Shown here: piece by piece, positions 4,522-55,580 of the stretch
Position numbering within the stretch: the stretch's first letter is position 1
Layout: the number at the start of each line of letters is the position of its first letter
Assembly: GCF_030684315.1 (NCBI RefSeq)
Contig: NC_081360.1
Span: 29,061,818-29,125,817 of the forward strand
Length of the DNA: 64,000 nucleotides
Direction: 5' to 3'
Source: Stegostoma tigrinum
Taxonomy: Eukaryota
Notes under the pieces: model-generated
What the model was told of the DNA's origin: nothing
The model's database searches: none
What the model saw: only the letters and a program-made list of their open reading frames with translations
Translations under genes and position numbers: made by a program

Positions 4522-4860
4522 TAGTGATAATGGGAACTGCAGATGCTGGAGAATCCAAGATAATGAAATGTGAGGCTGGATGAACACAGCAGGCCCAGCA
4601 GCATCTTAAGAGCACAAAAGCGGACATTTCGGGCCTAGACCCTTCGTCAGAAAAAGGGCATGGGGAGAGGGTTCTGAAATAAATAGGGAGAGAGGGGAAG
4701 GTGGACCGAAGATGGATAGAGGAGAAGATACGTGGAGAGGAGAGTATAGGTGGGGAGGTAGGGAGAGGATAGGTCAGTCTGGGGTGGGGGGGGGGGGGTG
4801 CGGGATGAGGTTAGTAGGTAGGAAATGGAGGTGTGGCTTGAGGTTGGAGGAAGGGCTAGC
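4522..4860 (-). mobile_element. Penelope-like element 3' end with hammerhead motif (4623-4650)
   Basis: Reverse complement reads CTGACGAAGGGTCTAGGCCCGAAATGTC followed by the PLE terminal sequence also seen at 19495, 21138 and 55018. Confidence 0.8.
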
Positions 4861-5954
4861 TGAGACGAAGGACAAGTTAGGAAGGGCTATAATAGATCTG
4901 GTTTTGACCAGTGAGAGAGAATTAATCACTGACCTCATAGTGAAAGCAGCTCTGAGTAGCAGTGACTGTAATATGACTGAATTTTACATACAGTTTAATG
5001 GAGAAAAGTGTGGGTCCAGGACTACTATTTTGAATTTTAACAAGGGCGACAATGAGGGCTAAAAGCAGAGTTAGTGAAAGTGAACTGACAATTTAGATTA
5101 AGGGATAGGTCAATAGAGATACAGGGGCAAAACAATTATGGGGACATTCCAGACAGTGCAGAGTAGAAACATTCCAAGGGATTGACCCATCATTCCTGGT
5201 TAATTAAAGTCAAAGATATTATTGATCTCAAATAAAAGATGTTAATTGCACGAGAATAAGTAGCAGGTCAGAGGACTAGACAGAATATTAAAAAAAGCGA
5301 ATGCAAAATATTACTAAAAGGTTAAGGCAAGAAAAATTAGAGTATAAGAAAAAGTTAGCCAAAGTTATAAAACAGTTAGGAAAGTTATCAATATTTAAAG
5401 AAGTTAACAAAGTAAGTATTGGTCCTTTTAGAAAATGAATCGCTGAGGAATTAATAATACATAACAGAGCAGACAAGTTGAACCAATATTTTGCACTGGT
5501 CTTCACTCAATAAAAGTAGCATCCTGCAAATAGCATTACATCAGGATTTGGAAAGAATGAAGGAATTCCAGAAAATTACAATTAACAAGGAAGGAGTACT
5601 TAGTAAAACGTTTAAATTCCAAGTTAACAAGTTCCCAGGTCCTGATGGATTTCAACCTGGAGTGTTAAAAGAAGTAACCACTTAAATAGTTGATGCATTT
5701 GTTTTAATTCTCCAAAACTTGTTAGATCTAATGAAAGGCATGGAAGTTAGCTAACATAACTCATTTTATTTCAAAAGGGAGGGATGTAGAAACCAGGAAA
5801 GTACAGCTTAATGTCTGTCATAGAAAATGTTGGAAGCTATTATTAAAGATGTTAAAATGGAGCACTTGAATAAGTTCAAGGGTTGAGTCAGCATGGTTTT
5901 GTGATAGGGAAATTATATTTAACTAACTTATTGGACTTCTTTGAAGAAGTAACC

Positions 5955-6070
5955 TGGGGGCTTATGACACAGTGGTAGTGTTCTACTGCTAAACAGGAGG
6001 CCCAGGTTCCAAGACCCATCAGCTCCAGAGGTGTGAAATATTATCTCTGAACAGGTTGATTAGAAAATAT
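5955..6070 (+). mobile_element. Short (~115 bp) tRNA-derived SINE
   Basis: acagtggtag A-box, ggttccaagaccc B-box-like, tail ctgaacaggttgattagaaaatat; related copies at ~11900-12012, ~25078-25195 and ~63248-63352 (-). Confidence 0.65.
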
Positions 6071-6624
6071 AAAAATGAAGGCGTAACGTATGCTGTAGAT
6101 AAAGGGGTACCAGTGGATGTATTGCTTTTATAGTTCTAGAATGCATTTAATAAGGTGCCACACCAAAGATCATTGTGGAAAATAAAAGTTTGTAGTGTTG
6201 GTAGTAACTTTGGCATGGATAGAAGATCACCTTGCTAATGGGAAGCAGGGAATAGGAACAAATGGGTCTTTTTCAGACTGGTAGGATGTCACAAGTGGAA
6301 TGCCACAGGGTCGGTGCTGGAATCCCAACTTATTTATATAAATTATTTCAATGAAAGGATCGAAGGTAAGGTAGCTACATTGTCTGTTGACACAGGTAGC
6401 CATTGAGTTGTGAGGAGATTGTAAGGGGTAAGTAGGGAATACAGATGGGTTCAGCGAGTAGGCAAAGATCTAGCAAATAAAAGTACACGGTGGAAAAAGT
6501 ATGAAATTGTCCATTTTGGCAGAAAGAATAAAAAAAGCATTATCTAAATGGTGAGATTGGAGACCTGAGATGCAGAGGGTTTCTTGGTGCATGAATCCCA
6601 CAAGGTTAGTATGCAAGTACAGGA

Positions 6625-7920
6625 AATATCTCTGCCTCCTCCAGTGGTCCCCAGCATTACAGATACCAGTCTTCAACCAAGTCGAATCATGTGGAGTGAA
6701 ATCAAGAAATGGTTGGGGACACTGGATACTGCAAAGGCTATGGCCCGTAACAATATTTAAACAATAGGACTCAAGATTGGTGCTCCAGAACTTGCTGCTC
6801 GTCTAGTGTGGCATCAAGGAGCCCAGCAAAACTGGAATCAACGGGTATTGGAGGCAAACTCTCTGGTAGTTAGAGTTATACCTGACACACATAAGATGAT
6901 GATCGTGGTTGTTGGAGGTCAGTCATCTCAGTCCCAGGACATCTCTGCAGGAGTTCCTCAGGGTAGTCTCCTAAGCCTAACCATCTTTAGATGCTTCATC
7001 AATGACCTTCCCTCCATCATAAGGTCAGATGTGGGGATGTTCGCCAATGATTACACAATATTCAGCACCATTCATGATTTCTCAGATATTGAAGCAGTCC
7101 ATGTTCACATGCAACATATTATGGACAATATCCAGGCTTGGGCTGACAAATGGCAAATAACATTTGTGCCTCACAATGCCAGGCTATGACCATCAACCGT
7201 AAGAAACTAACTACCACCCCTTGGCATTCAACAGTGTTACCATCACTGACCCCAACCAACATACTGGGGGTTATTAGTGACCAGGAACTCAAACGGACTC
7301 ACCACGTAAATACAGTGGCTACAAAGAGCAGTTCAGAAGCTAGGAATACTGTGGCGGTAACTCACCCGCTGACTACCCAAAGCCTGTCCACCATCCACAA
7401 GGCACAACTCAGGTGTGTGATGGGATACTCCCCACTTGCCTGAATGAGTGCAGCCCCAACAACACTCAAGAAGGTTGACGCCAAGCAGGACAAAGCAGCT
7501 CACTTGATTGGCACTACATCCACAAGCAGCACCTCTCTCCATCACCGAAGCTTAGTATCAGCAGTGTGTACCATCTGCAAGATGCACAGTAGAAAATCAA
7601 CAAGGATCCTCAGACAGCACCTTTCAAACCCGTGACCACTTCCATCTAGAAGGAACAGGACAGCAGATATATGGAAACACCACCACCTTCAAGTTCCCCT
7701 TCAAGCCACTCACCATTCTGACTTGCAAATATATCGCCGTTCTGTCACTGTCGCTGGGTCAAAATCCTGGCATTCCCTCCCTAATGGCATTGTGGGTCAA
7801 TTCACATCAGGTGGACTGCAGCGGTTCAAGAAGGCAGCTCACCACCACCTTCTCAAGGGCAACTAGGGATGGGCAATAAATGCCAGCCAACAGCAGCGTC
7901 CACATCCCTCAAATGAATTT
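6625..7920 (+). mobile_element. Second CR1-clade LINE family, 5'-truncated RT plus 3' UTR, nested in the long CR1
   Basis: DISAGVPQGSLLSLTIFRCFINDLP...GMFANDYTIF; 3' tail ttctcaagggcaactagggatgggcaataaatgc. Confidence 0.85.
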
Positions 7921-8499
7921 TAAAAACAAAGTAATCAGGAAAGCTAATACAATGTTATATTACAAGGGGAATTGACTGCAAGATTAGGGAGGTTATACTT
8001 GGATTAAAAGTAGGATTCATCAGACTATGTACTGATTAGCATACTTGTGGAAGGATGTTAGAGTAGGAACAAGTTTCGAGAGTGTTTGTTCAACTAATAC
8101 CTGGAATGAGTGGATTGCCTTATGAGGAAAGGCTGGACAGGCTAAACCTCTATCCTCTTGGAATTTAGAGAAATCAGAGGTGACCTACTTGAAACACAAG
8201 ATCCTGAGGGGTGGGACCTGACCAGGTGGATGCTAAAAGAATGTTTCCCCTTGTTTCAGAATCTAAAACTAGGGGTTATAGTTTAGAAGTGAGGGGATGC
8301 TGATTTTAAAAAAGAGGAGGAAACTTTTTCTCCGAACGTTGAGAGTCTTTGGAATTCCCTTCTTCCAAAAGCATCGGATGAAGAATCTTTAAATATTTTC
8401 AAAGCAGAGGTAAATTCTTGATTTCCAAGGGGTGAAAGTTTTTGAGGATTTGCAGGAATGTAGAGTTGAGGTTAAAACCTGTTCAAATTTCCTTTTCCT

Positions 8500-8810
8500 T
8501 AATTCATGGGATCAGGGCGTCGCTGGCTAGGCAGCATTTATTGCCCATCCCTATAGTCCAGAGTTAACCACTCTGCTGTGGGTCTGGAGTCACATGTCAG
8601 CCAGACTAGGTAAGAATGGCAGTTTCCGTCCCTAAAGGACATTAGTGAACCAGATGGGTTTTTCCCCAACAATCGACAATGGATTCATGGTTATCATTAA
8701 ATTCTTAATTCCAAATACTTATTGAATTCAAGTTTCACTACCTGCCATGGTGGTATTTGAACCCAGGTCCCCAGAACATTATCTGGGTCTCTGGATTAAC
8801 AATCCAGTGG
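8500..8810 (-). mobile_element. tRNA-derived SINE sharing its 3' tail with the 6625-7920 LINE family
   Basis: Minus strand: B-box ggttcaaatacc near 8750-8765; tail tagggatgggcaataaatgc at 8535-8554 identical to the LINE 3' end. Confidence 0.7.
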
Positions 8811-9824
8811 CCTCCCCCTTAATGACCTTTGAATGGTGGAGCTCGATTTGAAGGGCCAACTGACCAACTCTAGTTACTTGTTCGTATGTATTAATAAATT
8901 AATCTTGCTGTTGTCTAGAGAGAATTCAAAATGTACAAACCAAAACAAAGTGGAACATTTGCCTCAATTTAAATATTGAATTGAGAATAATGGTGCTATT
9001 TCAATGTGTTCATGTCAGGGGTATTTAATCTTGAGATATTCACAGTCTCCTTTTGAGAGAGCCCGATTTGTTGTCTTCATTTAAAACTGGCATTGTTGAC
9101 GCAGCAGATGACTGATCCAGACATTGAGTAAAACCTAATAGAACTGCCAGGGCTAATTACTTTCTATTGAAAAATGACTAAAATAGGTGTTTAGGTTATT
9201 GCTACCTCTCTGAGTGATAGTTAATCTTTAATACATGATTTTTTAAAAAATCCTAAAATTCTATAGATGAATGTTTCAAGAAATATACAGCTAAAACTGT
9301 TTAAAATAAAAACAACTTATCATTTATTTATTTCTTCATTAGAATGTAGAAAAGCATGAACATAGTTTTGCCGAGGTTACTCGATGAATAAAAGTTTGCC
9401 TTTTTGTTGAAATGTTAGCTTGGTTTCTCTCTCCACCGATACTGCCGGAGCTGTTGAGTGTTTTCAGCATTTTCTGCCTCTACTTCCTAGGGAAATACTT
9501 AATTGAAAGACCAAAATGTCACCTAATATATTCTTAAAGTATTGCTGTGAGAAACTGAGTTGAGTGGAAATTATTTTGTTGCATCTGTGTACTGTTAGAT
9601 TGCAAAATTTATATCTTGACATTAATGTAACTATAATACTTCAGGTTTCAAGGTATAATTATTTGATCAACAAATTAATTTGAGCAATTAATGATTTGGA
9701 CTTGGAACAAAATTGTACACTATTATTCTACATTTTGTGTTGTGATGCTCAGCCTGATTTTTATTGTAACTTGATAGACCTTTTTTGCAATATAATTTAG
9801 AAACACACAAGGCAAAAATTGAGC

Positions 9825-11040
9825 TTTTTGAAGAAGTGACAAGGAGGGTTTATGAGGGCAGAGCGGTGGACATGATCTATATGAACTTCAGTAAGGTGTT
9901 TGACAAAATTCATCATGGTAGGCTGATTAGCAAGGCTGGGTCACACATATTACAGGGACAACTAGCTATTTGGACACAGAACTGGCTCAAAGGTAGAAGA
10001 GAGTGTGTTGGTGGAAGGTTGCTTTTCAGACTAGAGGCCTGTGACCAGTGGTGTGCCATAAGGATTGGTGCTGGGTCCACTGCTTTTCATCATTTTATAT
10101 AAATGATTTGGATGTGAACAAAGGCGGTATGTCAGTAAGTTTGCAGATGACACCAAAATTTGGGGTGTAGTTGACAGTGAAGGTTACTTCAGTACATTAG
10201 GATCTTGATCAAATGGGCTCAGGAGTGGCAGGTGGAGTTTAATTTAGATAAATGTCAGATGCTGCATTTTGGAAAGGCAAATCAGGGCACTACTTATACA
10301 CTTAATGGTAAGGGCCTGGGGAGTATTGCTGAACAAAGAGCCCTGGGATGCAGGTTTATAGTTCCTTGGAAGTTGAGCCACAGTTAGACAAGATAGTGAA
10401 GAAAGTATTTGGTATGCGGTATGTGTGCCTTTATTGGTCAGTTCATTGAGTTTAGGAGTTGGGAGGTCATTTTGCAGCTGTACAGGACACTGCTTAGGCC
10501 ACTATTGGAATACTGTCAGGTCTCCCTTGCTGTGGGAAGGATGTTGTGAAACTTGAAAGGATTCAGAAAAGATTTATAGGGATGTTTCCAGGCTTTGAGC
10601 TAGAGGGAGAGGCTGTATACACTGGGGCTATTTTCCATGGAGTGTCAGAAGCTGAGGGGTGACTTTACAGAAGTTTATAAAATCATGAGGGGCATGGATA
10701 GGGTAAATAGACAAGGTCTTTTCCCTGGGGTGGGGGAGTCCAAAATTAGAGGGCACAGGTTTAAGGGTGAGAAGGGGAAGATTTCAAAGGGACCTAAGGG
10801 GTAAGTTTATAATGCAGAGGGTGTGCATGTGTGGGGAGTGAACTGCCAGAGGAAGTGGTGGTGACTGATAAAATTACAATGTTTAAAAGGCATCTGGATG
10901 GGGATATGATTAGGAAGGGTTTAGAGCAATATAGGCAAAATGCCGCCAAATGGAATTAGATTTATTTAGGATATCTGGTCGGCATGGATGAGATGGACCG
11001 AAGGGTTTGTTTCCGTGCTGTATATCTCTAGGACTGTACA
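9825..11040 (+). mobile_element. CR1/HER1 LINE 3' portion
   Basis: EEVTRRVYEGRAVDMIYMNFSKVFDKIHH; aagtttgcagatgacacc (KFADDT); tail ggaccgaagggtttgtttccgtgctgtat. Confidence 0.88.
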
Positions 11041-11264
11041 TAATTAGGGTTGTCCCAACTGGAACATATTCTAGATATCATACCACTATTGTGAATTTAT
11101 CACTTGTCACATCACTTACGAATTTCAGCTAAAATTGAACAAATGCTTTCTTGGATATGAGGAATTATGTATTTATAGTTAGTAAATTTTTTAAAAATGT
11201 AGTTCCTAATTAATGTAAGCCTTAAAAATCTGTTTTTATCACACTTTTTCTCTGTCTTCCTCCA

Positions 11265-11822
11265 AAAGGTTTTTAAAGTCTTGAAGAACATAGATAAAAT
11301 GAATAGCAAAGGTCTTTTCCCTAAAGTTGGGGAGTTCAAAACCACGGGGCATATTTTTAAATTGAGGGAAAATATTTAAAAGACATGAGGGATAATTTTT
11401 TTTTAATAGAGGTTAGTGTGATGAATGAATTGCCAGAGGAAAAGGTGGATGCAGGTACAGTTATAATATTAAAAGACAGTGGATAAGTACGTGAATAGGA
11501 AAGGTTTGGAGAGATATGGGCCAAAGGCAGGCAGGTAGGTAGGACTAGCTTAGTTTGATGTGGACTTGCCGGTGTCTACCCCAGTCCAACAAAGTCAGAA
11601 GTCAGTCCAACAGGTTTATTTGAAATCACAAGCTTTCATAGCGCTGCTCCTTTGTCAGGCCTTCAGGACTTTAGCTGATGAAGAAGCAGTGTTTTGAAAG
11701 CTTGTGATTAAATAAGCCTGTTGGACTATTATCTGGAGTCATGCAACTTCTGATTTTAGTTTGAAAACATTGTGGACCAGTTGGACAGTAGGGTCAGTTT
11801 CCATGCTGTATGACTCAGTGAT
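11265..11822 (+). mobile_element. CR1/HER1 3' fragment interrupted by a PLE mini-element
   Basis: Homologous to 10670-11035; tail tttccatgctgtatgactc. Confidence 0.75.
11559..11755. mobile_element. Fold-back PLE mini-element (second family) with two opposed hammerhead motifs and 9-bp TSD
   Basis: Inverted arms 11604-11658 and 11675-11727; CTGATGAAGAAGCAGTGTTTTGAAAGCT (+) and CTGACAAAGGAGCAGCGCTATGAAAGCT (-); TTAGTTTGA at 11550-11558 and 11756-11764. Confidence 0.75.
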
Positions 11823-12299
11823 TCCTGGGGAAGAATTCAACTGGTACTTCATTTTAAGGGGTTATTTTGTACATGTCATATTTATAAACATTGTTTTGTA
11901 GCCCAGTCTTGTCGTACACTAGCAATGTCCCTACCTCCCTGAAGCAGGAGGCATGGGTTTAGGTCCCGACTGCTTCAGAGGACTGCTGTAACATTTCTGT
12001 TCAGAAAATATTTTAAAGACTGAAGCTTGGTACTTGTACTTGAAGGCAGTAGTTTAGCTTCTCGCTATAGTTTCCGCTAACCGCTCCTGTGCTACCCATT
12101 CCAAAAGAAAATCATAAGGGTCCTGAGGTAAATTATACTCCTGCTCTATTTTAACTATTCTGACTGAATGTAGCTACATTGCCAGATACGTGTAATGTTC
12201 CTGGTCGATCATCTAAATTTATAGTTAATTTGTCCATTGAGTCAATGAGAGAAGGAGAGAGGCTCTGTGTCTGAATGCCTGCAGGTGACGTAAATGTAA

Positions 12300-13720
12300 T
12301 AAAATATGTTGTACAGATGATGTGGGAAGAATACAGTTGGATATAGGTTGTGGACAAAAATCTAGCAGATAGAATATAGTGTGGGAAAGTGTGAAGTTCT
12401 TCATTTAAGAAGGAACCATAAAAAGCAGAATATTATTGAACTGGAGAATAGTTGTACAATTCAAGTGTAGAGAGATTTGTTTCATTGCACGACTATCAAA
12501 GAGTTGGTATGCAGGCCATGGCCCCTCTAATTTTGCTGCTGTGTGGATCTCCGTGATCCATACGTGGCAGTAACTTCTGTAACTGGAAGTCATCACATCT
12601 GTACACTGGCATGCATGGACCCTCCAAGCAGTTGCACGACTTAGAGGGAACATTGTATGCAGGTACAGAAAATGATTAGGAAGGCTCATCGGATGCTATC
12701 CTTTTACTGTGACAGGAACTGAATGTAAAAGGATGGAGGCTGTGCTTCAGTTGCATTAGAGGCAGTTCACAGGAGATTTACTAGATTGATATCTAGAATG
12801 AGTGGCTTGTCTTATGAGTAAAGATTAGATAGCCTGGACTTGTTTTTATCAGACTTCAGAAAAGTAAGGTGAGATTTGATTGAAGTTTATTAGGTCCTGA
12901 ACTGTCTTGATAAGATGGATATGGAAAAGATGTTTCCTTGTTTGGGTGAGTCCAGACCAGGGGACGTTGTTTGTTTGTTTTTAAATTAACGTTGCCCTTT
13001 TAGGACAGATGTGGGAAATGTTTCTTCTCAGGGGCTAAATGACTTTGGAGCCCTCTATTTAGGAGTTTGGGGGGCATTGAATGTTTTTAAGGCAAAGGTA
13101 GATTAGGTTCAATACCCAACAGGAATGTAAAGTTAAAAATTGTGGAGCTAGAAAAGGTCGGAAAGCATTTAAGCAGGTAAGTCAACATTTCGGGATGGAA
13201 TCCCTTCTTCAAACTGCTTATGATGGTCTGAACATTACCTGGAGTCTGTGGGGGATAAGCTGGCTGTATCGACAAGCATTGAAGAAGGAGTCATGGCTGT
13301 AGTATTGAGATTGCTTCAGAATGTAGTTAGGAGTTTCAAGACAGAGGGGTTGGAGTGGGAGAGAGACTCACTGAGCTCTCTTGAGGGAGGAGGAAATACC
13401 CTTCAAGGTGGGCATCCTTAGAGGCTTCGCAGTATGGTTTTCAGTGATTTGGAGACAGCAAGGATACTGGAAGCTAGAGCCAAAAAAAGGAGCTGGAAAA
13501 GCACAGGAGGTCAGACAGCATCTGAGGAGCAGGAAAGTCAACGTTTCAGATCAGAAGCCTTCTTTTGACTCTAGTTTCCAGAACTTTCCATCTCCAAGAC
13601 TAAAAGGTTATCAGAGGTAGATTAGAATGTGGAATTCACAACACGGCAGATCCGCCATGATCACATTGAATGTTTAAGCAGGCTTGAATGGCCTACTTTT
13701 GCTTCTAATTCGTGTTTGTA
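12300..13720 (+). mobile_element. Decayed CR1 3' half with nested insertions, including a PLE-derived segment at ~13135-13590
   Basis: CR1 RT C-terminal and 3' UTR similarity (ggcttgaatggcctacttttgcttctaattc); PLE terminal motifs at 13185-13213 and 13480-13565. Confidence 0.65.
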
Positions 13721-13822
13721 AAACAAGACAAATCACTACATCAAACAATGCCTTTTAAACTCATGACTAGTATTTCAAGGACTAATTTTAAATATAACTG
13801 GAAAGCAATTTTGTGAACTTGA

Positions 13823-13969
<147 letters not shown>

Positions 13970-13999
13970 TGAGTATCGGTTTTAACATCTTCAATTTGC

Positions 14000-15110
14000 T
14001 GGAGAAGAAATGCATTTGTCAAAGCTTTTTGTCTTGCACTCGTTTGGATAATTCACAAAGGAAAAGTAAAGGTGTTTTTGTAAATTACCACGAGTTACCT
14101 TTAATCTAGGTACTTTATTAAGAAATCTCACACAAACTAGTATTAAAATAATGATTTAGACTTTATTGCATGTAGCAACCAAAATAAGACCACTCAAGTA
14201 AACAAGTTTAAGCCTTGCAACTCAGCTTGACTATTACTGATTAATGGTGTCTATCTCTCGAAGAGTTCAGGTTTAGTCCTTGTGAGTATTGATCTTCAGA
14301 GTTCTACTACTGAATTATTCTGGTGTTGGATTCTTATAGAATGTTCTCTTTCAAATTTGGTGGTGTGACATTATTGATGATTAAATAGATTCTTTCATCC
14401 ACAACATTGACTACTGTCCTGGAGACAACATGTTTGTAGCTTGACTTCTTATTAGAAGTAGCTCCCTGCTCCTTGTTACAATTGGGGTTAGCTGCCTGTT
14501 TTAAAACCAGTTTTTTTTCCTGTAATTAACCCTTTTACTTCAGAATCTTCCTTCTGCAGGCAGACTTGATTACCCATTTGTCATGAGGCAGCAAGTTGTC
14601 AAGCAGTGTTGTCTCCTCTTTCCCAGGAAACAAATTCTCCTTATCAGGGATGGTTAATGAGCAAGTTGCTTCTAATTCCTTTATAACAGCTTCTCCTTGT
14701 CCCTTCTATCTCAAGTTTATTGCAGAAAGAGCTTTTGCTGATTCTTTCAATCCATGAAGGAACTAAAATTCTGAAGTTCACATTGTTAAAGGTAAAACAA
14801 CAATTATACAAGGAGGAGGGTGCTTATTAATTGGCAAGTGTACTTGGAGTGGTAGAGATGTTGCCATGGAGCATGTACCAGTTAATGCTAACTGACAGCA
14901 GCCAATGCATGCTGACGGGTCACTTGCAATGAACTGAAAAACAGTACTAAATCTTTCTTTGGGAATTGAAATGGGCTTGTACATGTTCTGCTTCCATAGA
15001 ACAAAGCCCTGTGTATTAATATATGTAGCTTCCAGTACATGTAAGTACGTCATACTTCAATCTGACTGTCCCAAGTTGGTTGTCAACATAATTCTTTGCA
15101 GTGATTGAGC
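14000..15110 (-). mobile_element. Old PLE 3' remnant split by a ~700-bp TG...CA-bounded insertion (~14080-14780)
   Basis: ORF 14778..15053 LHVLEATYINTQGFVLWKQ resembles a PLE GIY-YIG C-terminus; terminal-like gtgcaagacaaaaagctttgac (-) at ~14018-14040. Confidence 0.45.
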
Positions 15111-15219
15111 AGATGTCATTCTAACCTCCATTCTCCTCTTATGTGGTATGAATGGTGTTTCCCTTTACATTTACTATTTCTCACTCCCAACTGCAAAACA
15201 AAAAGCTTCAATAAATCTG

Positions 15220-15404
15220 GTTAAACACAGCAGGCCGAGCAGGAAAGCTTGATGTTTTGGGTTGGGACCCTTCTTCTGAAGAAGGGTCCCAACCTGAAAC
15301 ATCAAGCTTTCCTGCTCCTCTGATGTTGCTTGGCCTGCTGTGTTCATCCAGCTTCACAACATGTTATCTCAGATTCTCCAGCATCAGCAGGTCCTAGTAT
15401 CTCT
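15220..15404 (+). mobile_element. Fold-back PLE mini-element with 81-bp palindrome and 15-bp TSD
   Basis: Palindrome 15237-15317 centred on 15277; motif CTGAAGAAGGGTCCCAACCTGAAACATC at 15276-15303; GCTTCAATAAATCTG at 15205-15219 and 15405-15419. Confidence 0.88.
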
Positions 15405-15553
15405 GCTTCAATAAATCTGTCTTGTTTGGTAGTTCTGGGGTTCTGTACTACTGACAGATTTTAACTTAATATTATTTGACAGCTGTATCAATAACATTTG
15501 TCACATTTTGTCCAAAAGATGTCATCACAAGCTGAAGTACAGGTAAAAGTTAA

Positions 15554-15706
<153 letters not shown>

Positions 15707-16149
15707 TAGTATATTTTTGTTGGACGTCGGACTGCACAGGAGTTCCCTGGCTATTGTAATTTAGGCATGCTTTTAAACAAAATAAGATCTCATGCTGACA
15801 AGTGGATTTCCTATGTTTGGAAGTAAATGACAGCCTATTACAAGTTGATTCTTTAGGCCAACCAAATCTTATCTGTCTATTTTCCTGTCACTTCATCTCT
15901 AAAGGAGGGGAACAGGAGCTGCATGGAAGGCTGGTCAAATGGGTAAACAGCTTTTCTTTCCACTTCTACACATCCTGTATTATCCCATGATTGTGCAACA
16001 TGAATGTATCCTCTTTCCCCAGCCAATGTAACAAGGTGCATTAACTAAATAGTTAGTTCAGTTGTCACCTGCATGATGATAACACCTGGATCTATCTCTG
16101 TCCCACTAATCTGTCCCTATTTGAGAGATTGCTTGCCTGACATGAAAAG

Positions 16150-17075
16150 CAGAAGTTGATGTAGGAGTAGGCCATTTGGTCCTTCAAACCCACTCCTCCA
16201 TTCAGTTGGGTCATAGCTGGTACTCCCTAATCTATTGCAGCACTTACCTTCTCAAAATTTCTAATCGATTTGTAAAGCATGATTTGTCATAATCCATGCT
16301 GACTTTGATTAACTGTAAATGCTTTCCAAGTGTTCTGTACCATGTCTTTTATAGTAGACTGTAGTAATTTTCCTACTACTGGTCTGTACTCTTTTAGCTC
16401 TTCTTCCCTCCCATTTTAAATTGTGCAATATCATTTGATCCCCTCCAATCTGTAGGAACTACAGTGTCAATAGCACTTTGCATGGCCATTTTAAATGCAT
16501 CCAGTATTTTCAGGGCTAATTCCTTTAGTACCCTGCAAAGTAGATTTGTCAACCTTTAACCCCATTAATTTCCCCAGCACCATTTTTGTTGTAGTACTGA
16601 TTTCCGTCAATTCTATTCTGTTACTGATCTATGGTTCCCTTCCATTTCTGGAAGATTATTTGTGCTCTCTTGTGAACGCAGAAGTAAAGTATCTATTCAA
16701 TTCTGTCATTTCATTGTTCCCCAACTTCTGACTGTGAGGAACCTACATTTTGGTTTTGCTAATCTTTTTTGCCTTCGCTACACAGGTTTCAGTCTGTTTC
16801 TATGTTGCTAGCAATTTTATTCTTTTTTTTTGTTTTTCCTTCCCCCTTTTCATTGAAACTTTTTCAGCTCTTCTGAATTCTGAAATGCTCCCAATCCTTG
16901 GGTTTGTTGTTTGTTTTTTCTGGAAATTTGGTATGTCTCCTTTTTGAATACAATACTATACAGAACTTTTTTAGTAAGTCATTGTTGAGCCACTTTCCTT
17001 TTTCATTTTTGCAGTAGGCAGAAATAACTAATTCATGAACGCATTCTTTAAATGTGAACCATTGCCTATCTACCT
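16150..17075 (-). mobile_element. Old CR1 remnants
   Basis: CR1 tail reverse complement (gtaggagtaggccatttggtccttcaaaccc) and degenerate ORF2 pieces (atccatgctgact). Confidence 0.55.
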
Positions 17076-43000: not shown

Positions 43001-43227
43001 ACTGAGGAATGTGACATGGATGTAGAAACGAGTTTTACCAAATACTTGGTCAAACACCTGGACTGACAGTGAAATTAATGTCGATGGACAGGAACAAAGA
43101 TTGGAATAGAAATCCTGTCGGAGAGAGGAACAGAACTTCTTCAAGGTGGGCATGCCTAGAAGAGATGTGGTATTGAGTTAAATACTAAATAAAAATCGAA
43201 AGAACTGTGGATGCTGTAAATCAGGAG
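40075..43227 (-). mobile_element. Near full-length, decayed Penelope-like retroelement (RT + GIY-YIG), circularly permuted, 13-bp TSD
   Basis: SVLSKGLSFIP, GV.MG..GP, LFLPYIDDIIG (~41470-41506), RVPLVLTYHP, FTCTSQNLV.RI, EEQHFIFHLGTLQP; TAAAATTGTGGAA at 40062-40074 and TAAAATTATGGAA at 43228-43240. Confidence 0.92.
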
Positions 43228-43309
43228 TAAAATTATGGAATCTGACGTACAGAATTATGAGAATAAACCCATACCGTTACATTCTGTGGCACCACACTTC
43301 AGAATTTTT

Positions 43310-44285
43310 ATTTTATTCTCGTGAATTGGCATCACTGACAAGGGCAATATTTATTACCCAGGCTTAGTAACCCTTGAAAAGGTGATGGTGAGCCATATTG
43401 TGAACATGCTGCTTTCCTTGTATGAAGATTGTTAGTTAGGTAGTGCCAGCATTTAGACGCAGTGATGAAGAAGAAATGGCAATATATTTCCAAGTCAAAA
43501 TGATGAGTGACTTCAAGAGAAATCCACGGAGGTGGGAGTCTCATCTTGTAGTGTTCAGATGAAGAAGCCTTGGTAATTTGGTATAGCACCTCTGGTTTAT
43601 GGGTTCTTTCTTGTCCAGTGGTCCCTTGAAATGAAGAAGATACTTGGCGTAGAGTATAGCTGATGACAAGAACTTATGCATTGTTCTTTTAACACACGCA
43701 GGTTATTGCACTGCAGCTCCAACATGGTTCTGGCTGACCATGAAACTCCCCTGCTCTTATGCCCAGGATTTGTAGGTTGAGAATCAATCTGGTTGCCATG
43801 TTACAAACACACTTTCAATAGCCTTCACTATAGACACATATAGAATGAAGAAGATACTGAATGTTTAAAATAGTGGAAAGAGTCAAAAAGCAGATGTCCT
43901 GAATGGTGTTGAATTTTTTGGGTGTAGTAAGAGTTGCACTTCATTGAGGTAAGTGAGAGCATTCCCTGGTTTGTCCCTTGAAAATCATAAAAAGACCTTG
44001 GAATTCAAGACATGGGTCATTTACTGTGGAGTATTCAGCCTCTGACCTGCTGTTGCAGACACAATCCTTATGAGGATGTTCCAGTTAAGTTTCTGTTCAA
44101 TGATGATCTGCAGAATATTGGTGGGACATTCCACAATGCTAATGCCATTGAATGTCATGGGGAAGTGGTTAGAAACTCTCTTACAGGAAATGATCATTGC
44201 TTGGCAAATGTGTGGCACAAATGTTCTTTGCAGTTTATCAGACCAAGCATGAGTGTTGTCAAAGTTCTGCTGCATCAACTTTAAT
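43310..44285 (-). mobile_element. Decayed second-family CR1-clade LINE
   Basis: HAWSDKLQRTFVPHICQAMII; tail reverse complement at ~43320-43400. Confidence 0.7.
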
Positions 44286-44969
44286 ATTCCATCATTTTAG
44301 TCTTTCTACGTTTCAATGACAAATGAACACTTATTGATTTGGCTTTAATGCAAATGTCAAACATGCATGTCAACTGAATTCTATTTTGTAAGGAACTTGC
44401 TCAGGATAGACTTGTATTTGATTTAATTGTCACAGTGGTGGGCTAATTCAGTCACTGGAAGCCATTGGCAATACTGTCATTGCAATTCACTAATGCCTGA
44501 ACACAATTAGAAAGCATTCAGGCATCCACCTGTTCAGCTTCTTGGCTTCTCAGGTCCTGCATGATGGATATTACACCTCTCAGAATTATTAATAAATCAT
44601 AGACCTAAGCTGAATAGTACCAGCAATTTCACCAGGAGTGGTGGTTTCTTCCAGTACTGCAGCTGTCACTTGGAGGAGGAGCAGTCAGGTTTACCCCAGG
44701 TAAACTGGGTAGGCTCATTGGGTCCAGTCAGGTAGTTCAGAGGTTGCAATGGGAATTGGGTGTCCAAAGGAGGGATAATTTAAAAAGGATGCAGTTTTCT
44801 TATCAAGGCAGCCCTTGCTACCAGCCAATCACATTGACCACAAAAGCCCAAGGAGGAGAGACTTTGCGCTCAAACCACTCATTAATTTATATTCCGATAA
44901 TGTGGCTATCTGCCTCTGTTACCACTGGTCAATGCTGCAAAGATTGTAGGAGTGCAAGAGGATTAGGAA

Positions 44970-45565
44970 AATCATAAACTAGCAAAAGATTATTAAAAGA
45001 ATACACAGAGGCTGAAGTTAGAATATTGAAGTAGACTTGCTGCAAATATGAAAAAAAACAGTCAGAGAGCTTCTACAAGCATATAAAAAGACAGTAGTCA
45101 AACATTATTTCCTTTTAAGAATGAAATTTAGGATTAATAATAGGAAACAAAGAAATTGCAGAGATTTTCATCTCAGGAGATGCAAAAAGCATCCCAGGAA
45201 TAATTGAAAATCAAGGGGCAAAAGGGAGAAAGGAACTCAGAACAATCACTATCACCAGGAACAAATACAGAAATCTTATTCACCCAAAGACTGACAAAGT
45301 ACCTGCACCTGATGAACTCCATCCTAGGATCTGGAAAAATGGCTGTGGAGATAGTGGATACGTTTGTTTTTAAGTTTCTCCTGTTCTTTAGATTGTGGAA
45401 ATGTCCCAAAGGATTGGAACACCACAAATGTCATACCTCTATTCAAAAAGGAGGGAATCAGAAAGCAGGAATCTATAACCCAGTTATCCCAATGTCTAAC
45501 ATCAAAAAATGCTATAATCAGTAAGTTCATGACAGTCAGCCTCAGTATCATTAGGGATGGTTTTT
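44970..45565 (+). mobile_element. CR1 ORF2 internal fragment
   Basis: SLDCGNVPKDWNTTNVIPLFKKEG; acaaagtacctgcacctgatgaactccatcctagg (PGPD..HPR-like). Confidence 0.75.
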
Positions 45566-46063
45566 AGAAGTATTATTTTATTGTTAAGACGTTTTCAAGC
45601 ACTCTTTGTTCTTGCAGAAACCAGAATATCGTACCAACTTCCAAATAATTTACTCACAGCATTCAGACTTAATATTCGATTCAGTCATTCCACCTCCTGG
45701 AATGTTTTTTGCTTGTGATGTTTCAGTTAATAAAAAGCTGGTTTTTGCAATTGGCACAAGTATTATTGCCTGAATGAAAATGACTGCGCTGTAGAGAATT
45801 TCACACTTCTTTGGAGAAGAGGACTGCCTAATTTATCTAATTAAAACAGGCATCAGATTTTTAAAAAGACATTAAAGTCTGCAGGCATCAGGAATAAAAC
45901 ATCCTCTGTGAACAGATTATGCATTTATCCTGGAGCTATTGGAGAAGTTTTGTTACTTCAATTATAAACTAGCACAGTAGGATTTATTTAGATTTGTGAT
46001 GGATTGATAGGATAATAAAACTGAAATTTGTCTGTTATGAACGTTTGAATAATCTATTTCTGA

Positions 46064-46321
<258 letters not shown>

Positions 46322-47047
46322 TGAGACAAAATTTTACTCCCATAACTTTTATGGATTTAGCCCTTGCTCACATGTGGCATTTTTAAAAGGTTACTCAACC
46401 AACTAAAGCGCAATTTCCAAAATCAGAATGCTGCAGGAATTTAGTTTGAAAGCTTGAGTGGACAGCAGCTTAGGTGTCAGTCTTTTAATTGGCCTCAATG
46501 TGTAATATAGCTGCACAGGGCCAACTATTCAGCAAGATGGTGTGGATGAGGGGGGAAAGCACATTACACTTTTAGGTTCTAGTAGCAAAATTCTGTCAAC
46601 AGATCAAAAAAGATAAAGAGTGAATTTATATTTATTAATAAAAAATACTGTAAAAGAATAGCATGCTCCTCCTTTTCATTGCCAACAGGCTTTGAATCAT
46701 GGGATCAGTTAATCAACAACAATTTATCGTAAGTTGAGGCAGGTAATGCCAAATCTGTTATACTCTTGTTTCCCTGCCCTAGGTAGTGCAAAGAGCGACT
46801 TCATTACTCTATTTATATATTAATTATTGAGCCACATATAGACCCCAGTAACAATAAACATTTACATTTTTCAGTAATCACTGAAATCTGCTGATCATTT
46901 AAGACTCTTGAATACTTTTAGAATTTATAGTGGATAGTGATCAGTTGAATATATTTTTAACACATTTAAGTTGAAATGATTTTGGAATTAAACATTCTAA
47001 ATTTTTATTTTTCTGCGATTAAATATCGTTGTTGACTTCATTTTTAG

Positions 47048-47149
47048 GTCGTAACCTTGTGGTACAGAGCACCAGAAATTCTAATGGGATGTAAATTTTA
47101 CTCGACAGCAGTAGATGTTTGGAGCATAGGATGCATCTTTGCAGAAATG
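47048..47149 (+). CDS. CDK2: CDK2-like exon 5
   Basis: tttag|GTC...ATG|gtattt; [34 protein letters not shown]; 102 bp. Confidence 0.96.
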
Positions 47150-47964
47150 GTATTTATCTTCAGAAATATAACTAATTTATAAAATATGTATGTATTTTTG
47201 TTTTTACATGTATTTATATGTATATATAAAATATGTATTTATTTCTTCTTAGTATTTTAAGAATTTTTTTCCTTTTGAAGTCTGAGGAAAATAACACGTA
47301 TAAAAATGTGTTGAATGATCTTATTGCTGAAATGTCATCTGTGCATCTATTAAAAGTCTCGAATACATTTTGACACCCCAGTACATATCAAATTTACTTC
47401 CTATACCTGGTAATAGAAAGACTGGGAATTTTGTTTCGGGTTTGGGACAGTGAGATCAGGGTCCTGACTGCCTACTCATGTCAAAAGTTGTCATCTGACA
47501 TAATTTTTAAATGAATAACAAATTAATAGCTGAAGTGCATGTTTGCCATCCCATTAAATATGCTGAACAAATTCTTGACACTGAAAGACCAATAGGAGAT
47601 TCTCCAACACAAAGGAAATGCAAGTTTGCTGGTAAGGGAAAGGGAGGACGCCACAAGATGGAGGCACCCTCTCAGCATTTCCAAAAGTTTTGAAAACAAA
47701 AATGGTCACAACCGCAAGAGCGCTATTGTGGAGGGACATGCAGAGAACACTGCAGACTCAGCTGTGGCTACTTTTCTGCATTGTCATCATTGCAGGGATG
47801 GGTTGAGCAAATAGCTTAACTTACTATGGAACTCTGGGCCCTAGACCTGCTAATAGGAGACCATCTTCTTGCCCTGAGCATGGTTTGGCCACACGCAGGA
47901 CCCAGATACCAACTGGAAAATTCCCATTGGTGTAGGAAAGGGGCATTAAATAGACTCCTTAGTT

Positions 47965-48135
47965 ATAGTCATAACAATGTACAGCATGGAAACAGACCCT
48001 TCGGTCTGACTCATCCATGCCGACCAAATATCCCAAGGTAATCTAGTCCCATCTGTCAGCATTTGGCCCATATCCCTCTATACCCTTCCTATTCATATAC
48101 CCATCCAGGTGCCTTTAAATGTGACTGCCTCACTA
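47965..48135 (-). mobile_element. HER1/CR1 3' tail fragment
   Basis: acagcatggaaacagacccttcggtc is the reverse complement of the tail at ~10995-11025. Confidence 0.75.
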
Positions 48136-49607
48136 GCACTGCATCTCCAACTCAGCCTCCTTAAAATGGCCCAGAAGTAGGAAATGCTGATGATTGATGT
48201 GCAGCTGTCTCGCAGCAAGTTTTCTGCCCTCTGCTGCCTTTGGGAACAATTGAAAATCTGGTCATATATATACCAACATGTCACAATATATAAATTCCAT
48301 GCCAGCATTTATAACGGGAATTTTCTGTTCCAAAGCATTAAGGTTTCACTATCATTTTATTGTTAGACAAATTAAGTCACCCTTGAAAAACTTAATATCT
48401 GACTGGATATTTCTACAGTTGGAAACCTCTTTCACTGCGTCTGAATTGGTACCAATTACAAAATTTCCCTGTGTGCAATCTATTCAGCATGAGTATGTGT
48501 AATTTTCAAAATATCATGCAATGCAATTTGAGTGTGAGCATGAATTGAAAATAGGAGTGACTTTCCTTCTGTGAAGATTTTAGTCACATCTTTTCAAAGA
48601 CTTTAAAGAAACTGAGGATTGATTTGCATGGGCAACTTTTACATTATCGACAAACTTTAAATTTTGTATTACTCACAAACAGCTTCTATCATTAAAATAG
48701 GCGCAGTTAGGTAGAAGACCTAAGGATATCTTTTACATTAACTTGGACACTGTTCATAATACCAAAATCTGTCCTAGTGCTCCCAGACCTATCCTTTCAG
48801 TATGTTTCAAGGCTCTGGAAACATATTCAAAATCCTCAGGACGAATGGTGTACATCCTGCTGTTCCAAAATGCAGTAGCTACTCCAAACTTGATATGAGT
48901 ATTCTTAGTACTACCACATGGCTAAGCATCCTGTTCTCATAAAACTTTGACTGACAGTGAACAGTAATGCAGAAAATGTGTTGAATATAAAAATAGCAGA
49001 TATACAAATTTCGTAATCATATACTAGCTGGGTTACATACTTTATCAGTTTTTGTGATTTACTTGGATGAGAAAACACCCAAATTTCATTTAATATCCTT
49101 TCTGTGTTTGCTGGTTTGAACTGCAGCTTCAATTGGTTTATTACAGTCAGCTTCAGTATTAATATGGATGGAGATTAGGCACCGGGGATGGGGTGGGAAA
49201 AGCAAGACTTCTTTTTGATCTTAAAATGCATTCCAAAGAAGATTCGTGTTGAACTTGAAATGTTAAGTTTACTCACAAACATCCCAGATGATGCTAAACT
49301 TGCTGAGTTCCCCATCACTTTCTGTTTTTATAATAAGATCCCTCATTTAGATATTAAGTAAGAAAAGTTTGGCCTTGGATTAGTGTCTTTTATAGTTTAA
49401 TAATGTGTTGACACCCGTGTAATCTCACGGATGAAGTATAATAAATTGGGTGAAGAACTAAGATGCAGTTGGATCCCTTGCCCCAATGTCAGATTTCATT
49501 TTCAACAGAAAATGTAAATGAAGGGGATAAAATCAATATAATTCCACAGATCTATGCCCTATACCAATCACCTATAAGACCTATATGAATTCTTTCTTCA
49601 ATTAAAG

Positions 49608-49811
49608 GTCACAAGAAAACCTTTGTTTCCTGGAGATTCCGAGATTGATCAACTTTTCAGGATTTTTCGCACACTTGGTACACCAAATGAGGCTATGTGG
49701 CTTGGGGTAACACAGTTACCTGATTACAAAGCAAATTTCCCTCGGTGGGTCAGACAAGATTTCAACAAGATACTACCCAATCTGGACATAGATGGCAAAG
49801 ACCTACTAATG
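49608..49811 (+). CDS. CDK2: CDK2-like exon 6 (GDSEID motif)
   Basis: taaag|GTC...ATG|gttagt; [68 protein letters not shown]; 204 bp. Confidence 0.95.
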
Positions 49812-49847
49812 GTTAGTAGTATATCCCAATAAATTACTATTCTAACT

Positions 49848-50330
49848 TATTTTCAAAAAATATACTTTATTCATATCATATGTAAAAATATATTACATAA
49901 CAGTTCAATATTAGCATTAAAGTACAATCCAATTACTTTCAATATAATTGAGGTGCCTTACTACGCTTACAATTTCCGACTAAACTTAAAATATCTAATC
50001 CATATTAATTATCTAGTTCAAGGTGTTGTACATTTCATTCTAGCCTTCTCAGTGTACCATGGCAGCGGGGCTTAGACCATGATCTTTTCCCATTCAGTCT
50101 TTAAGGCTGCTAGCCCAAGCTTCAGAGTGTCCCTCTGTAGTCTTGAAATTGCAATGTCTCAATCTACAACTGTCAGTCATTGACAACTACTTGCAATGGA
50201 AGCTTCAGGCTAACCAAAGAGCATCTTTCTCTGAGTTGATGGTCCTCCGTAGTAGTTGATATTTGTCTAGGCCCATGGCTCTGGGAACAGCCTTCAGAGA
50301 ATAAAGACTTGTATTGTGGGATATAATTCA
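49848..50330 (-). mobile_element. Tx1/L1-clade LINE 3' remnant
   Basis: Minus strand ends tgaataaagtatattttttgaaa; degenerate translation LFPEP..TNINY.RRTINSEKDALWLA resembles a Tx1-type ORF2 C-terminus (recalled similarity, not searched). Confidence 0.5.
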
Positions 50331-51976
50331 CAGTTGTGTATCCATTTATAAAGTGGCGTAGATACTGCTCATAACTTTAAGGAATGTCTTTATATCAGTA
50401 CCCTGTTGCTGTCCCACTGAAAACATATATAAATGTCAACATATCAGTTGACCTTTGTCATTTTGAAAAATACCTCCAAAAACAGGGTTAATTTATTTGC
50501 TGAATAATAATGCATGGTGTGGATGTTCACTGTGTTTGTTGTTTGCTATCCAGGGTCTGCTCTGTGTGAGCATACTTTAAACTCCTGCACATGGTCATAA
50601 TACACCCCGTCCTATCTGCTTGATCACTTATACTTAGTTGTAAGATACTGTAAGTAAAGCATCCATTTGTTGGTGAAAAATTGAAGCTGACTAACGCAAA
50701 TATGACCTGTTGTGGCTGAAACATTGAGCAATTTGACTTCCATGTCAAACATATAATTATGCGCATACATGCTTTTTGGGGCAAACAGCTAGCCGTCTAA
50801 AAGGCCAGGCTGACTTCCATGCTGTAGTTTTTTGAGTTAGATTTGACCTGTTGGGTCTCACATGCTAAATTAAGGTTGCAATATCCAAGTACACGAGTTG
50901 AATTGTACCATTGTTTCTTCTTGTCATTCTGTGGTACAGATTACAGAATTTTTTGCTTTTAAGAGGACAGTAAAATGGCAAAGGCACACAGGATTTAGAT
51001 CTGTAATTTTGTTTTAAAATACAACATCAAATTTATAAAGATATTAAAATGGTGGGTGAGACTGTAGGTTTTGTAAATAGGGATAGAATTTGATTTTGTA
51101 TGATAGCATAAATGGCTGATGGCAATGTGCCTGAACATTTACATCTTCCAAATTTTGCATTACATATTCAACATGCCTTAGACTATAAAAATGATTGACC
51201 TTCAACTTGCACAGATGATTTGTCAGGTTGCAGTAAGAATTGTGTGTATGAATAGGTAACCATAAGAAAGTCCAGAACGTGAAAAGGATAGAGAAGAGAT
51301 TCACTAAGATGATTCAAGGATAAAAGAATTTCAGAATGTTAAGCATTGATCTGAAATATATTCAAAAACAGTTCTGACCAGTGCATAGGAAAAAAAAAAT
51401 CCCACTTGTGGATGAATCATCAACAGTGAACTTAGAATGAGCAAAAGATCCAAAAAGGTTTGGAATATATTTTTATGAAGACGATTGATACAACAACAGT
51501 AAAGCAGAAACTATGTTAAAGGAAAATGTTCTAATATTTGAGAAACCTTTAAAGAGGAAGGAGGAAGGGCAGGGAAACTAGATTGAGTGCATAATTATTT
51601 CAGAATATTAGGCTGGTTAGATTCAGTTGGAAGCAATTTGTTACCTTTCTAGACTTATATTTCTTATTGTTAAATGGTTTCCCAGTAGTTTTCTGAAGTT
51701 TTTACATGTTATTAATGAGCTCATATGCATTTAACAACATGCTCTGCTGTTCTTAACATGATAAGATTCCTGAATTTTCTTGTTCTTGTTTATCATAGAT
51801 TTAGGTTGAATGTTACATTCTTTGCTGTTAGTTCTCTATAGGAAATTATATGCTGGTTAATTTTTTAAAAATTAACAGTAGTTATTTTAATCAGAAATGT
51901 CCATCTGTGTTCTTGTTACTTTTAGAGACCAATAGGTAAAATAAAAGATTTTGAAACGTTTTCTTTTCATTTGTAG

Positions 51977-52081
51977 CAAATGCTCCAGTATGATCCAAAC
52001 AAGCGGATTTCTGCAAAGGTTGCTATAAGTCATCGATATTTCCGTGATGTCACTATTCAACTGCCACATTTACAGCTGTAA
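51977..52081 (+). CDS. CDK2: CDK2-like exon 7, last coding exon
   Basis: tgtag|CAA...CTG TAA; [34 protein letters not shown]; the seven exons sum to 897 nt = 298 aa + stop. Confidence 0.95.
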
Positions 52082-54411: not shown

Positions 54412-54775
54412 TGGAGGATCATCCCCAATGGACTACAGTTCACATTCAGGCCTTTCCAATTTGGTCCCAGGTGTGACAATGCCTATATTCAGAACATTGG
54501 GACCCTTCAGAAGCGTTTTTCCCTGCGACTCCTGAACAGATCCTCCCCAATGGACTGTGGTCCACATTCAGATCTTCCCAGTTTGGCCCCAACAGTGACA
54601 ATGTCTACATTTAGAACATTGAGATCCTTCAGAAACTTTTCTTTCTGCGGCTCCTGAAACACACACTTGTAGTAATGCGCTGGCATCTCAAAGGGTCTAG
54701 GCCTGAAACATCAGCCTTCCTGTTCCTCTGATGCTGCATGGCCTGCTGTGTTCATCCAGCTCTACACCTTGTTAT
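54412..54775 (+). mobile_element. Internally deleted PLE with tandem 122-bp duplication and 12-bp TSD
   Basis: Repeat units start at 54417 and 54539; PLE terminus from ~54690; AACAGATGATGA at 54400-54411 and 54776-54787. Confidence 0.75.
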
Positions 54776-55016
54776 AACAGATGATGAATGCAGTTTTTGG
54801 CAAGACATTAACACTATAATTCCTCTAAATTCACTATAATTACAGAAACTCCAGAATCAATATTTTATGCAGGTCTGACACATCTTTCTTGTGTTTGTAC
54901 TCTTTGCCCGTGTTGATAAAGCCCAAGAAAATATATGTTTCATTAACTGTTCTCTTAATGCCTCCTGCTACTTTCTGTAATTAATGAACATATACACCCA
55001 GGACCCTCTACTCCCC

Positions 55017-55108
55017 TCTGATGAAGGGTCTAGGCCTGAAATGTCAGGTTTTGTGCTCCTGAGATGCTGCTTGGCCTGCTGTGTTCATCCAGCTTCACAC
55101 TTTGTTAT
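55017..55108 (+). mobile_element. 92-bp PLE mini-insertion starting at the hammerhead core, 13-bp TSD
   Basis: CTGATGAAGGGTCTAGGCCTGAAATGTC at 55018-55045; CCCTCTACTCCCC at 55004-55016 and 55109-55121; inserted into a - strand CR1 remnant (~54810-55270). Confidence 0.85.
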
Positions 55109-55451
55109 CCCTCTACTCCCCAACCCTGTTTTGAGATGTACCCTTCATTTATACTGTCTTGCTGTATTATTTTTACCAAAATGAATCACCTCACACTTCT
55201 CTGCATTAAATTTCATCTGCCACTTGTCTTCTGATTCCACCAACCTCCCATGTCCTTTTGAAGTTCTCCACTTTTTAAAAAGAATTTGCTCATGGGATGT
55301 GGATTTTGCTGCCTGCCCTTGAGAAAATTTTGGTGAGCTACCTTCTTAAACTCTTGTAGTTTATTTGGTATAGATAGAACCACAATGCTATTTGGGATGA
55401 AGTTCCAAGGTTTTGATCCAGTGACACTGAAGGAAGTCAGATTTCCAAGTC

Positions 55452-55580
55452 ATCTGATGAAGGGTCTAGGCCCGAAACATTAACTTCTGCGGTCCTAAGA
55501 TGCTGCTTGGCCTGCTACGTTCATCCACCTCTACACTTTGTTATCTCGGATTCTCTAGCATCTGCAGTTCCCATATTGTC
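55452..55580 (+). mobile_element. PLE terminal fragment starting at the hammerhead core
   Basis: CTGATGAAGGGTCTAGGCCCGAAACATT at 55454-55481 plus terminal sequence to cagttcccat; nested in a second-family LINE tail (~55285-55650, -). Confidence 0.8.

Follow-up and report, generated by a model that had tools for sequence, protein, structure and literature searches.

We analysed a 64,000-nucleotide (nt) stretch of the genome of the shark Stegostoma tigrinum (NCBI RefSeq assembly GCF_030684315.1, contig NC_081360.1, forward-strand positions 29,061,818 to 29,125,817; called the window below) in which hammerhead ribozyme (HHR) motifs are dispersed. We think it probable that these motifs are neutrally decaying hammerheads from the pseudo-long terminal repeats (pLTRs) of Penelope-like elements (PLEs), that such hammerheads once formed the first ~30 nt of a capped RNA, and that a minority of the templates were self-cleaved.

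The motifs lie in PLE pseudo-long terminal repeats

The initial annotation of the window had listed ten HHR copies and another near 13190, and all of these were recovered on the same strand with offsets of at most 1 nt (corrected spans 11630-11658, 11675-11703, 40142-40171 and 13184-13212). A strict scan for CTGANGA, a stem II of at least 4 base pairs (bp) and GAAA returned 7 matches in the window, compared with a mean of 0.115 and a maximum of 1 in 200 dinucleotide shuffles; one of the 7, at 43002, is probably a chance match. The 14 rows of a relaxed scan comprise 12 PLE copies, one duplicate register and one likely chance match, and they include an overlooked PLE hammerhead at 36041-36070 on the minus strand. 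A census of element stubs gave 26 matches, and the window holds 8 inverted pairs, counting the 19492-21232 insertion. The hammerhead family was absent from the 9 matches at E ≤ 5 in an Rfam covariance-model scan of the window, and the mir-3202 and other microRNA matches were set aside as inverted PLE stub pairs or chance.

Positions within the element are numbered from the C of CUGA (+1); the preceding base is 0 and those further upstream are negative from -1. Within the window, the HHRs at 21138 (+) and 40171 (-) lie on the sense strand downstream of remnants encoding a reverse transcriptase (RT) thumb and a GIY-YIG endonuclease. A protein search for the element gave 114,773 candidates, of which 150 were scored, all 98-100% identical, and 20 regions elsewhere in the genome were then compared. 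One of them, L084, holds a complete unit of pLTR, open reading frame (ORF) and pLTR with an HHR on both sides of the ORF. Its probable ATG is at ~+168, its stop-free frame of 963 amino acids carries DKG, YIDD, a CX4CxxC linker and the VVY..YIG of GIY-YIG, and the second HHR follows 3,565 nt further on, with an inverted truncated copy just before it. Pfam matches of this ORF (RVT_1, E 4e-5; GIY-YIG, E 5e-4) were both under the gathering score. The linker, CNRRKCYTC, is of the CX2-5CxxC type placed before the endonuclease, a Neptune-clade feature; published work gives this type as common to Neptune and Nematis (PMC8557442). Traits of endonuclease-positive (EN+) PLEs are present: a single ORF with RT and C-terminal GIY-YIG, a partial tandem pLTR, an inverted 5′-truncated copy and a 30-40 bp tail. 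The PLE origin proposed in the initial annotation is borne out by the HHRs next to RT and GIY-YIG remnants in the window and by those flanking the full L084 ORF. Judged from sequence, the motifs sit in the pLTRs of several PLE families.

Hammerhead families share one covarying structure

The intact forms that had been inferred for families A, B and C have exact matches genome-wide (97,597, 762 and 65, respectively, with 0 for reversed-pattern controls). A family-free pattern that does not demand stem II pairing, CTGANGA-N12-20-GAAACGTH, matched 191,933 genome-wide sites versus 953 for its control, and 18 of 33 core matches in 400 kb of randomly placed DNA were fully intact. Further DNA of the genome holds families E, F and G, with other stem II sequences. 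The family E hammerhead (for example L165:363-396) has a 6-bp stem II, a U bulge and a 3-bp stem I; it looks young and common, contributing 11 of the first 100 matches listed for the family-free pattern, and the copies seen run on upstream instead of beginning at helix I.

Stem I had been described as only 2-3 bp, which holds for family A (CU/AG, 2 bp in 10 of 10 copies) and for family E, a family not among the cited window copies, but not for families B (AGUU/AACU) and C (UCAC/GUGA), where the majority of 20 copies each have 4 bp. The palindromic 15.2-16.2 pair, with no loop III, is CG in families A, B and E and GC in family C, in agreement with the short palindrome (AGCT or ACGT) suggested earlier for stem III; it has decayed in 10 of 12 window copies. 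Helix II has an extra base after A9, and the G10.1-C11.1 pair is G-C in 105 of 129 cases and G-U in 17. The core CUGANGA...GAAA..UH is intact in family copies and damaged in several window copies.

Covariation was assessed in an alignment of 18 rows, made up of 6 family representatives and 12 window copies. The hammerhead structure pairs 81% of its 191 cells, versus 66% after shuffling and 15-41% in slid registers. Core columns are invariant, all three helices vary between families, and two-sided changes occur in 9 of 12 base pairs; the covariation between families that had been proposed for stem II is thus confirmed and is shared by stems I and III. On these sequence grounds, the window motifs are minimal type I hammerheads, a class already published (Cervera & de la Peña 2014, PMC4209133), so the motifs as such are ordinary.

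The family A stem II with its CUAG loop is nearly palindromic (L084:2761-2772), and two family A copies are predicted to pair via stem II as well as stem III. Two intact family A hammerheads, each after a G at -4, form a natural 59-nt tandem at L101:4789-4900 (G000:C1:2722793 and 2722852), and a three-unit 59-nt tandem lies at G000:C10:55343807-55343949. Nine family A tail-probe matches at exact 208-nt spacing, a possible retrozyme-like array, occupy G000:C2:58043060-58044748.

Copy ends point to a probable capped start at -3

Family A ends were surveyed in 155 matches of at least 85% identity, from DNA that was in part chosen around known motifs. Copies start more than 100 nt upstream in 70 cases, at -10..+8 in 48 (31 of them at -3..0) and at +25..+33 in 4. 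The 3′ ends cluster at +90-95 and +126-133 in family A and at +97-98 and +132-133 in family B; the two sites lie ~35 nt from each other and match two internal RT starts in PMC11167929.

Genome-wide junction probes of 3 non-consensus and 22 consensus bases found 7,928 family A junctions at -3 versus 67 at -10. Among the first 100 junctions listed at -3, the preceding base is G in 83, compared with 20 of 67 at -10 (p 5e-12, counted by hand); leaving out symmetric or ambiguous GAG joins, the figures are 44 of 61 and 20 of 67 (Fisher p 3e-6, also counted by hand). A target-duplication check of a few solo copies gave mixed results, and the G of one copy belonged to the target. Untemplated G at full-length 5′ junctions of L1/SVA has been attributed to copying of the cap (PMC3287187). 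A TATA-like box, TATTTA at -33 in L084, lies ~30 nt upstream of -3 in family A; in family B, surveyed from 20 source loci picked for a whole core, 31 of 125 copies begin at -3 or -2 and TATAAA is at -32. Based on the junction pile-up, the preceding extra G and the TATA-like box, -3, at the base of helix I, likely marks the start of a capped transcript. Splicing to a 3′ acceptor in or before the HHR is a less likely cause of the pile-up, since copies begin at -3 and not at the AG at -23 or -13, and four contigs of related organisms compared with the full element showed no usable spliced joint. In family B, a pyrimidine tract that ends in CAG-ATG and resembles a 3′ splice site comes after the cut site (L039:1531-1555).

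Junctions accumulate at the predicted cut site

Cleavage after N17 is predicted between +28 and +29 in family A and between +30 and +31 in family B. Family A junctions number 3,158 genome-wide at +29, versus 231 at +24 and 759 at +37. The first 100 of 2,498 junctions at +25..+32, classed by hand, comprise 6 at +25, 13 at +26, 11 at +27, 10 at +28, 36 at +29, 4 at +30, 10 at +31 and 10 at +32 or beyond, and a script check on 30 loci put 10 at +29. Many of the +25..+27 junctions are inverted arms with a chance-complementary end. We conclude that the +29 excess likely marks self-cleavage in vivo.

Window copies decay neutrally within and beside host genes

Many copies had been placed inside DNAJB11 and CDK introns. 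Nine of 11 are indeed intronic, but only 4 are on the sense strand, and those at 55018 and 55454 lie ~3 kb past the CDK stop codon, beyond four AATAAA sites. The first of the two host genes, which we take from its translated exons to be DNAJB11, gave weak DnaJ and DnaJ_C matches in Pfam, below the cut-off. The earlier view that the window copies are decayed and probably inactive was upheld: none of the 8 cores passing the filter is fully intact, none of 6 window copies adopts the hammerhead fold in prediction, and the window's own copies are predicted to be inactive. The partners in inverted pairs are on opposite strands, so a same-strand partner cannot come from them. The stem III halves at 55018 and 55454 (both +), CpG-decayed to AUGU and ACAU, are exact complements 436 nt apart on the same strand; a cis heterodimer of these two copies was rejected because it would have a stem I of only 1 bp.

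Unselected DNA yielded 105 anchored family A copies, and 78 of them gave mismatch rates of 0.047 for the core, 0.048 for stem II and 0.057 for the flank, with 0.14-0.18 at CpG positions. The core thus decays like the flank, and selection on it after insertion was rejected. With no intact window copy, only 4 copies on the sense strand of introns and neutral decay, a host-regulatory role is unsupported.

Weighing the start, the cut and their alternatives

Several observations count against this reading. The evidence for both start and cleavage is indirect and genomic, and only 2 of the 155 family A matches in the compared DNA begin at +29. About 58 of the first 100 +29 junctions listed are symmetric joins on the 4-nt palindrome AGCU; their outer ends, close to +92 and +130, resemble those of other twin-primed insertions, and comparable joins on the ACGU palindrome 5 nt upstream are rare (the 231 at +24). 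Of the 36 junctions classed at +29, 9 have microhomology to an inverted arm, stem I of family A has just 2 bp, and a stall of RT at the edge of a predicted inactive hairpin, at +30, could leave ends at about +29..+31. The family B signal is weak (23 of 100 at +31 versus 3-12 per flanking class, with 6 microhomology cases); the pooled class at +34 or beyond holds 26 of 100, and a script check on 30 loci gave 9 at the cut and 9 beyond. Tandem partial copies in L084 read through upstream of -3 and need a longer or circular template, outside the model. The covariation shuffle test is inflated by relatedness, and decayed window copies make up 12 of the 18 rows.

It is possible, though we think it unlikely, that the hammerheads and the start at helix I are as described and that the +29 excess reflects RT stalling at the inactive hairpin or arm-joining repair at AGCU, with cutting in vivo rare or never occurring. 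The family A monomer is predicted to fold at minimum free energy into an inactive hairpin (+1..+6 with +25..+30) whose 3′ edge is at +30; together with the many +29 junctions symmetric on AGCU, the weak family B signal, the low activity reported in PMC4209133 and the report in PMC11167929, in its consulted parts, of no reads ending at the cut and of cleavage dispensable in vitro, this would fit such an origin. However, the equally long ACGU palindrome upstream has 231 junctions against 3,158, a 13-fold gap for which CpG decay of ~0.14 per base cannot account. A stall should also smear over +30 and +31, but +30 has the fewest junctions (4 of the first 100 listed), and about 26 of the 36 +29 cases are without arm microhomology (hand count).

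The pile-up at -3 could instead reflect truncation or template switching favored at the structure's 5′ edge, as many junctions there join inverted arms and overlap briefly. RT meets the structure from its 3′ side, however, and neither the extra G (83 of 100 against 20 of 67), which in L1/SVA is ascribed to the cap, nor the TATA-like box ~30 nt upstream in both A and B favors truncation, which we regard as very improbable. We give even less credence to the idea that some intronic copies are active or domesticated and cut the pre-mRNA of DNAJB11 or CDK, a role that has been proposed for intronic hammerheads of amniotes. Four copies are sense-oriented within introns, and random DNA of this genome is rich in intact cores (18 in 400 kb), so other genes may hold active pairs; in the window, however, the cores are damaged (0 of 8 intact), the hammerhead fold is not taken in prediction (0 of 6), the closest partner of a copy usually has the other orientation (8 inverted pairs) and the core decays like the flank. 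The damage, the fold and the decay speak against domestication of the window copies.

A model for PLE RNA processing

Under the model of a start at -3 and partial cleavage, a TATA-driven promoter in the upstream pLTR would begin transcription at the 5′ base of helix I; transcription of PLEs from the upstream pLTR has been described (PMC2377424, PMC6765202). The PLE protein would likely prime RT internally at ~+93 or +130 on both target strands; internal initiation at two sites, extension on both strands and protein-assisted cleavage have been reported (PMC11167929). Priming ~95-130 nt into the RNA and copying to its 5′ end would give stubs of 100-130 bp, often as inverted pairs. Most templates would be uncleaved and leave stubs from -3 with a cap-derived G, and a minority, likely self-cleaved after N17, would leave stubs from +29. 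Cleavage would need a second copy supplying stem III through the ACGU/AGCU palindrome, and protein help is probably needed, given the inactive hairpin predicted for the monomer. Published activity of PLE hammerheads is low and dimer-dependent (PMC4209133), and in the consulted parts of PMC11167929 RNA reads ending at the cut were not found and cleavage was not needed in vitro. The cut would remove the cap, or would free from a tandem the unit-length RNA that its 5′ and 3′ HHRs enclose.

Comparison with known elements

PLE minimal hammerheads have been published for fishes, coelacanth, Xenopus and reptiles. Those of metazoan pLTRs (PMC4209133) resemble the present ones in being of type I with only the palindromic 15.2-16.2 pair and no further helix III, in the extra base between 9 and 10.1, in G10.1-C11.1, and in their many covarying families of mostly single dispersed copies. 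They differ in helix length (2 bp for helix I and 4 bp for helix II in family A, versus 4-5 and 7-8 in Schistosoma mansoni) and in number, with ~190,000 core matches here versus ~4,000 in coelacanth and ~9,000 in Xenopus under that paper's own descriptor. The term shark was not found in the text parts and two supplements of that paper that were searched.

PAc, the Poseidon element of Anolis (Frangieh et al. 2024, PMC11167929), likewise has an HHR near the 5′ end of the ORF, two RT starts giving a 30-40 bp tail, extension of both target strands, uncleaved RNA as the main template and protein-assisted cleavage, the last three being predictions for our element. In contrast, the probable ATG here is at ~+168 rather than inside the HHR, the linker is CX4CxxC, and cut-site genomic junctions are in excess, whereas the consulted text on PAc reports no reads ending there. 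EN+ PLEs of the Neptune/Nematis type (Craig et al. 2021, PMC8557442) share the C-terminal GIY-YIG, a zinc-finger-like linker, partial tandems, inverted 5′-truncated copies and tails; the likeness is one of linker and architecture, and most copies here differ in being 100-130 bp stubs. The Penelope promoter of D. virilis (Schostak et al. 2008, PMC2377424) also starts transcripts within the upstream pLTR, but it has been described as an internal promoter lacking a TATA box, and an intron follows 46 bp downstream of the start, whereas here a TATA-like box lies upstream and the HHR is at the inferred start.

Non-LTR retrozymes (bioRxiv 10.64898/2026.07.22.740005; see also PMC7229834) carry type I HHRs related to those of PLE pLTRs and occur in one chondrichthyan genome. 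Theirs form tandem arrays, whereas the window copies are dispersed or inverted stubs rather than tandem units each with an HHR; short tandems occur elsewhere (L101). We found no paper on shark or elasmobranch PLE hammerheads, and none on a TATA box, start-site placement or cut-site junction footprints of PLE hammerheads, although subscription papers and bioRxiv supplements may bear on both points.

Annotated features

Coordinates are collected in Table 1. In the PLE remnant at 32137-32660 (+), the 5′ half of the hammerhead is deleted and what remains is GAAAUGUU. Most other repeats of the window are 3′ remnants of long interspersed nuclear element (LINE) RT genes, presumably CR1-like, including 9770-11539, 37375-37994 and 59693-60117. 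Downstream of the CDK gene are a 122-nt two-copy tandem and a degenerate minisatellite of ~21 nt (54417-54658 and 56678-56855).

Table 1. PLE-derived features and host genes of the window.
Position	Strand	Feature	Context
1755..29558	+	DNAJB11-like host gene, coding exons from end of J-domain to stop, placed by translation	
2302..2500	.	Inverted pair of family B stubs, arms from +25 and +6, cores truncated	
4523..4885	-	Family A PLE 3′ stub (-234..+128); HHR core 4623-4650 with decayed stem III (UGUC) and disrupted stem I	Antisense in DNAJB11-like intron
11603..11659	-	Family C stub; HHR 11630-11658, core change CUGACAA; left arm of inverted pair	
11669..11753	+	Family C stub; HHR 11675-11703, AGCU retained, G-U pairs in most of stem II, no stem I left	Sense in intron
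13184..13212	-	HHR, stem II GGGAU-ucc-AUCCC, first core base C>U; type found once in DNA compared	
13490..13564	-	Old A-like stub, core truncated	
15237..15405	.	Inverted pair of older family A stubs; HHR 15276-15303 (+), from 0 to +130, stem III decayed (CAUC)	
17087..17298	.	Inverted pair of old B-like stubs	
19492..20200	-	Inverted 5′-truncated PLE arm, GIY-YIG C-terminal remnant; HHR 19592-19619	
20159..21232	+	Family A PLE remnant: RT thumb, GIY-YIG, 3′ region; HHR 21138-21165; end +93	Sense in intron
25527..25610	.	Inverted pair of family A tail-only stubs	
32137..32660	+	Separate PLE remnant: GIY-YIG without Cys linker in kept part, 5′ inverted arm, family-E-like pLTR	
33743..33844	+	B-like stub beginning at +18	
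34499..52081	+	CDK2-like host gene, ATG to stop, exons placed by translation	
36033..36190	.	Two family B stubs in inverted arrangement, with decayed HHRs 36041-36070 (-) and 36081-36110 (+)	CDK2-like intron 1
38957..39096	.	Inverted pair of B-like tail stubs	
40073..41719	-	Family B PLE remnant: RT (YIDD), linker, GIY-YIG, TATA-containing pLTR; HHR 40142-40171 (GAAA>AAAA)	
54691..54775	+	Family A stub cut off at +7, core lost	
55013..55109	+	Solo family A stub (-4..+92) that has a target-site duplication and HHR 55018-55045	Past CDK stop codon
55453..55582	+	Solo family A stub (0..+130); HHR 55454-55481	

Implications

We lean towards reading this genome as a fossil record of PLE RNA processing, in which a capped, TATA-driven transcript began with the hammerhead at its extreme 5′ end and RNA that had already been cut served as template for thousands of germline insertions. 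If so, the junctions would be genomic evidence of in vivo cleavage by PLE minimal hammerheads, and cleavage would remove the cap together with the first ~32 nt or release unit-length RNA from tandems. In a young family with ~100,000 identical cores, insertion junctions may be readable as a map of template 5′ ends, and this map yields predictions of the start site and of the cut product, along with natural tandems as substrates, all of them directly testable.

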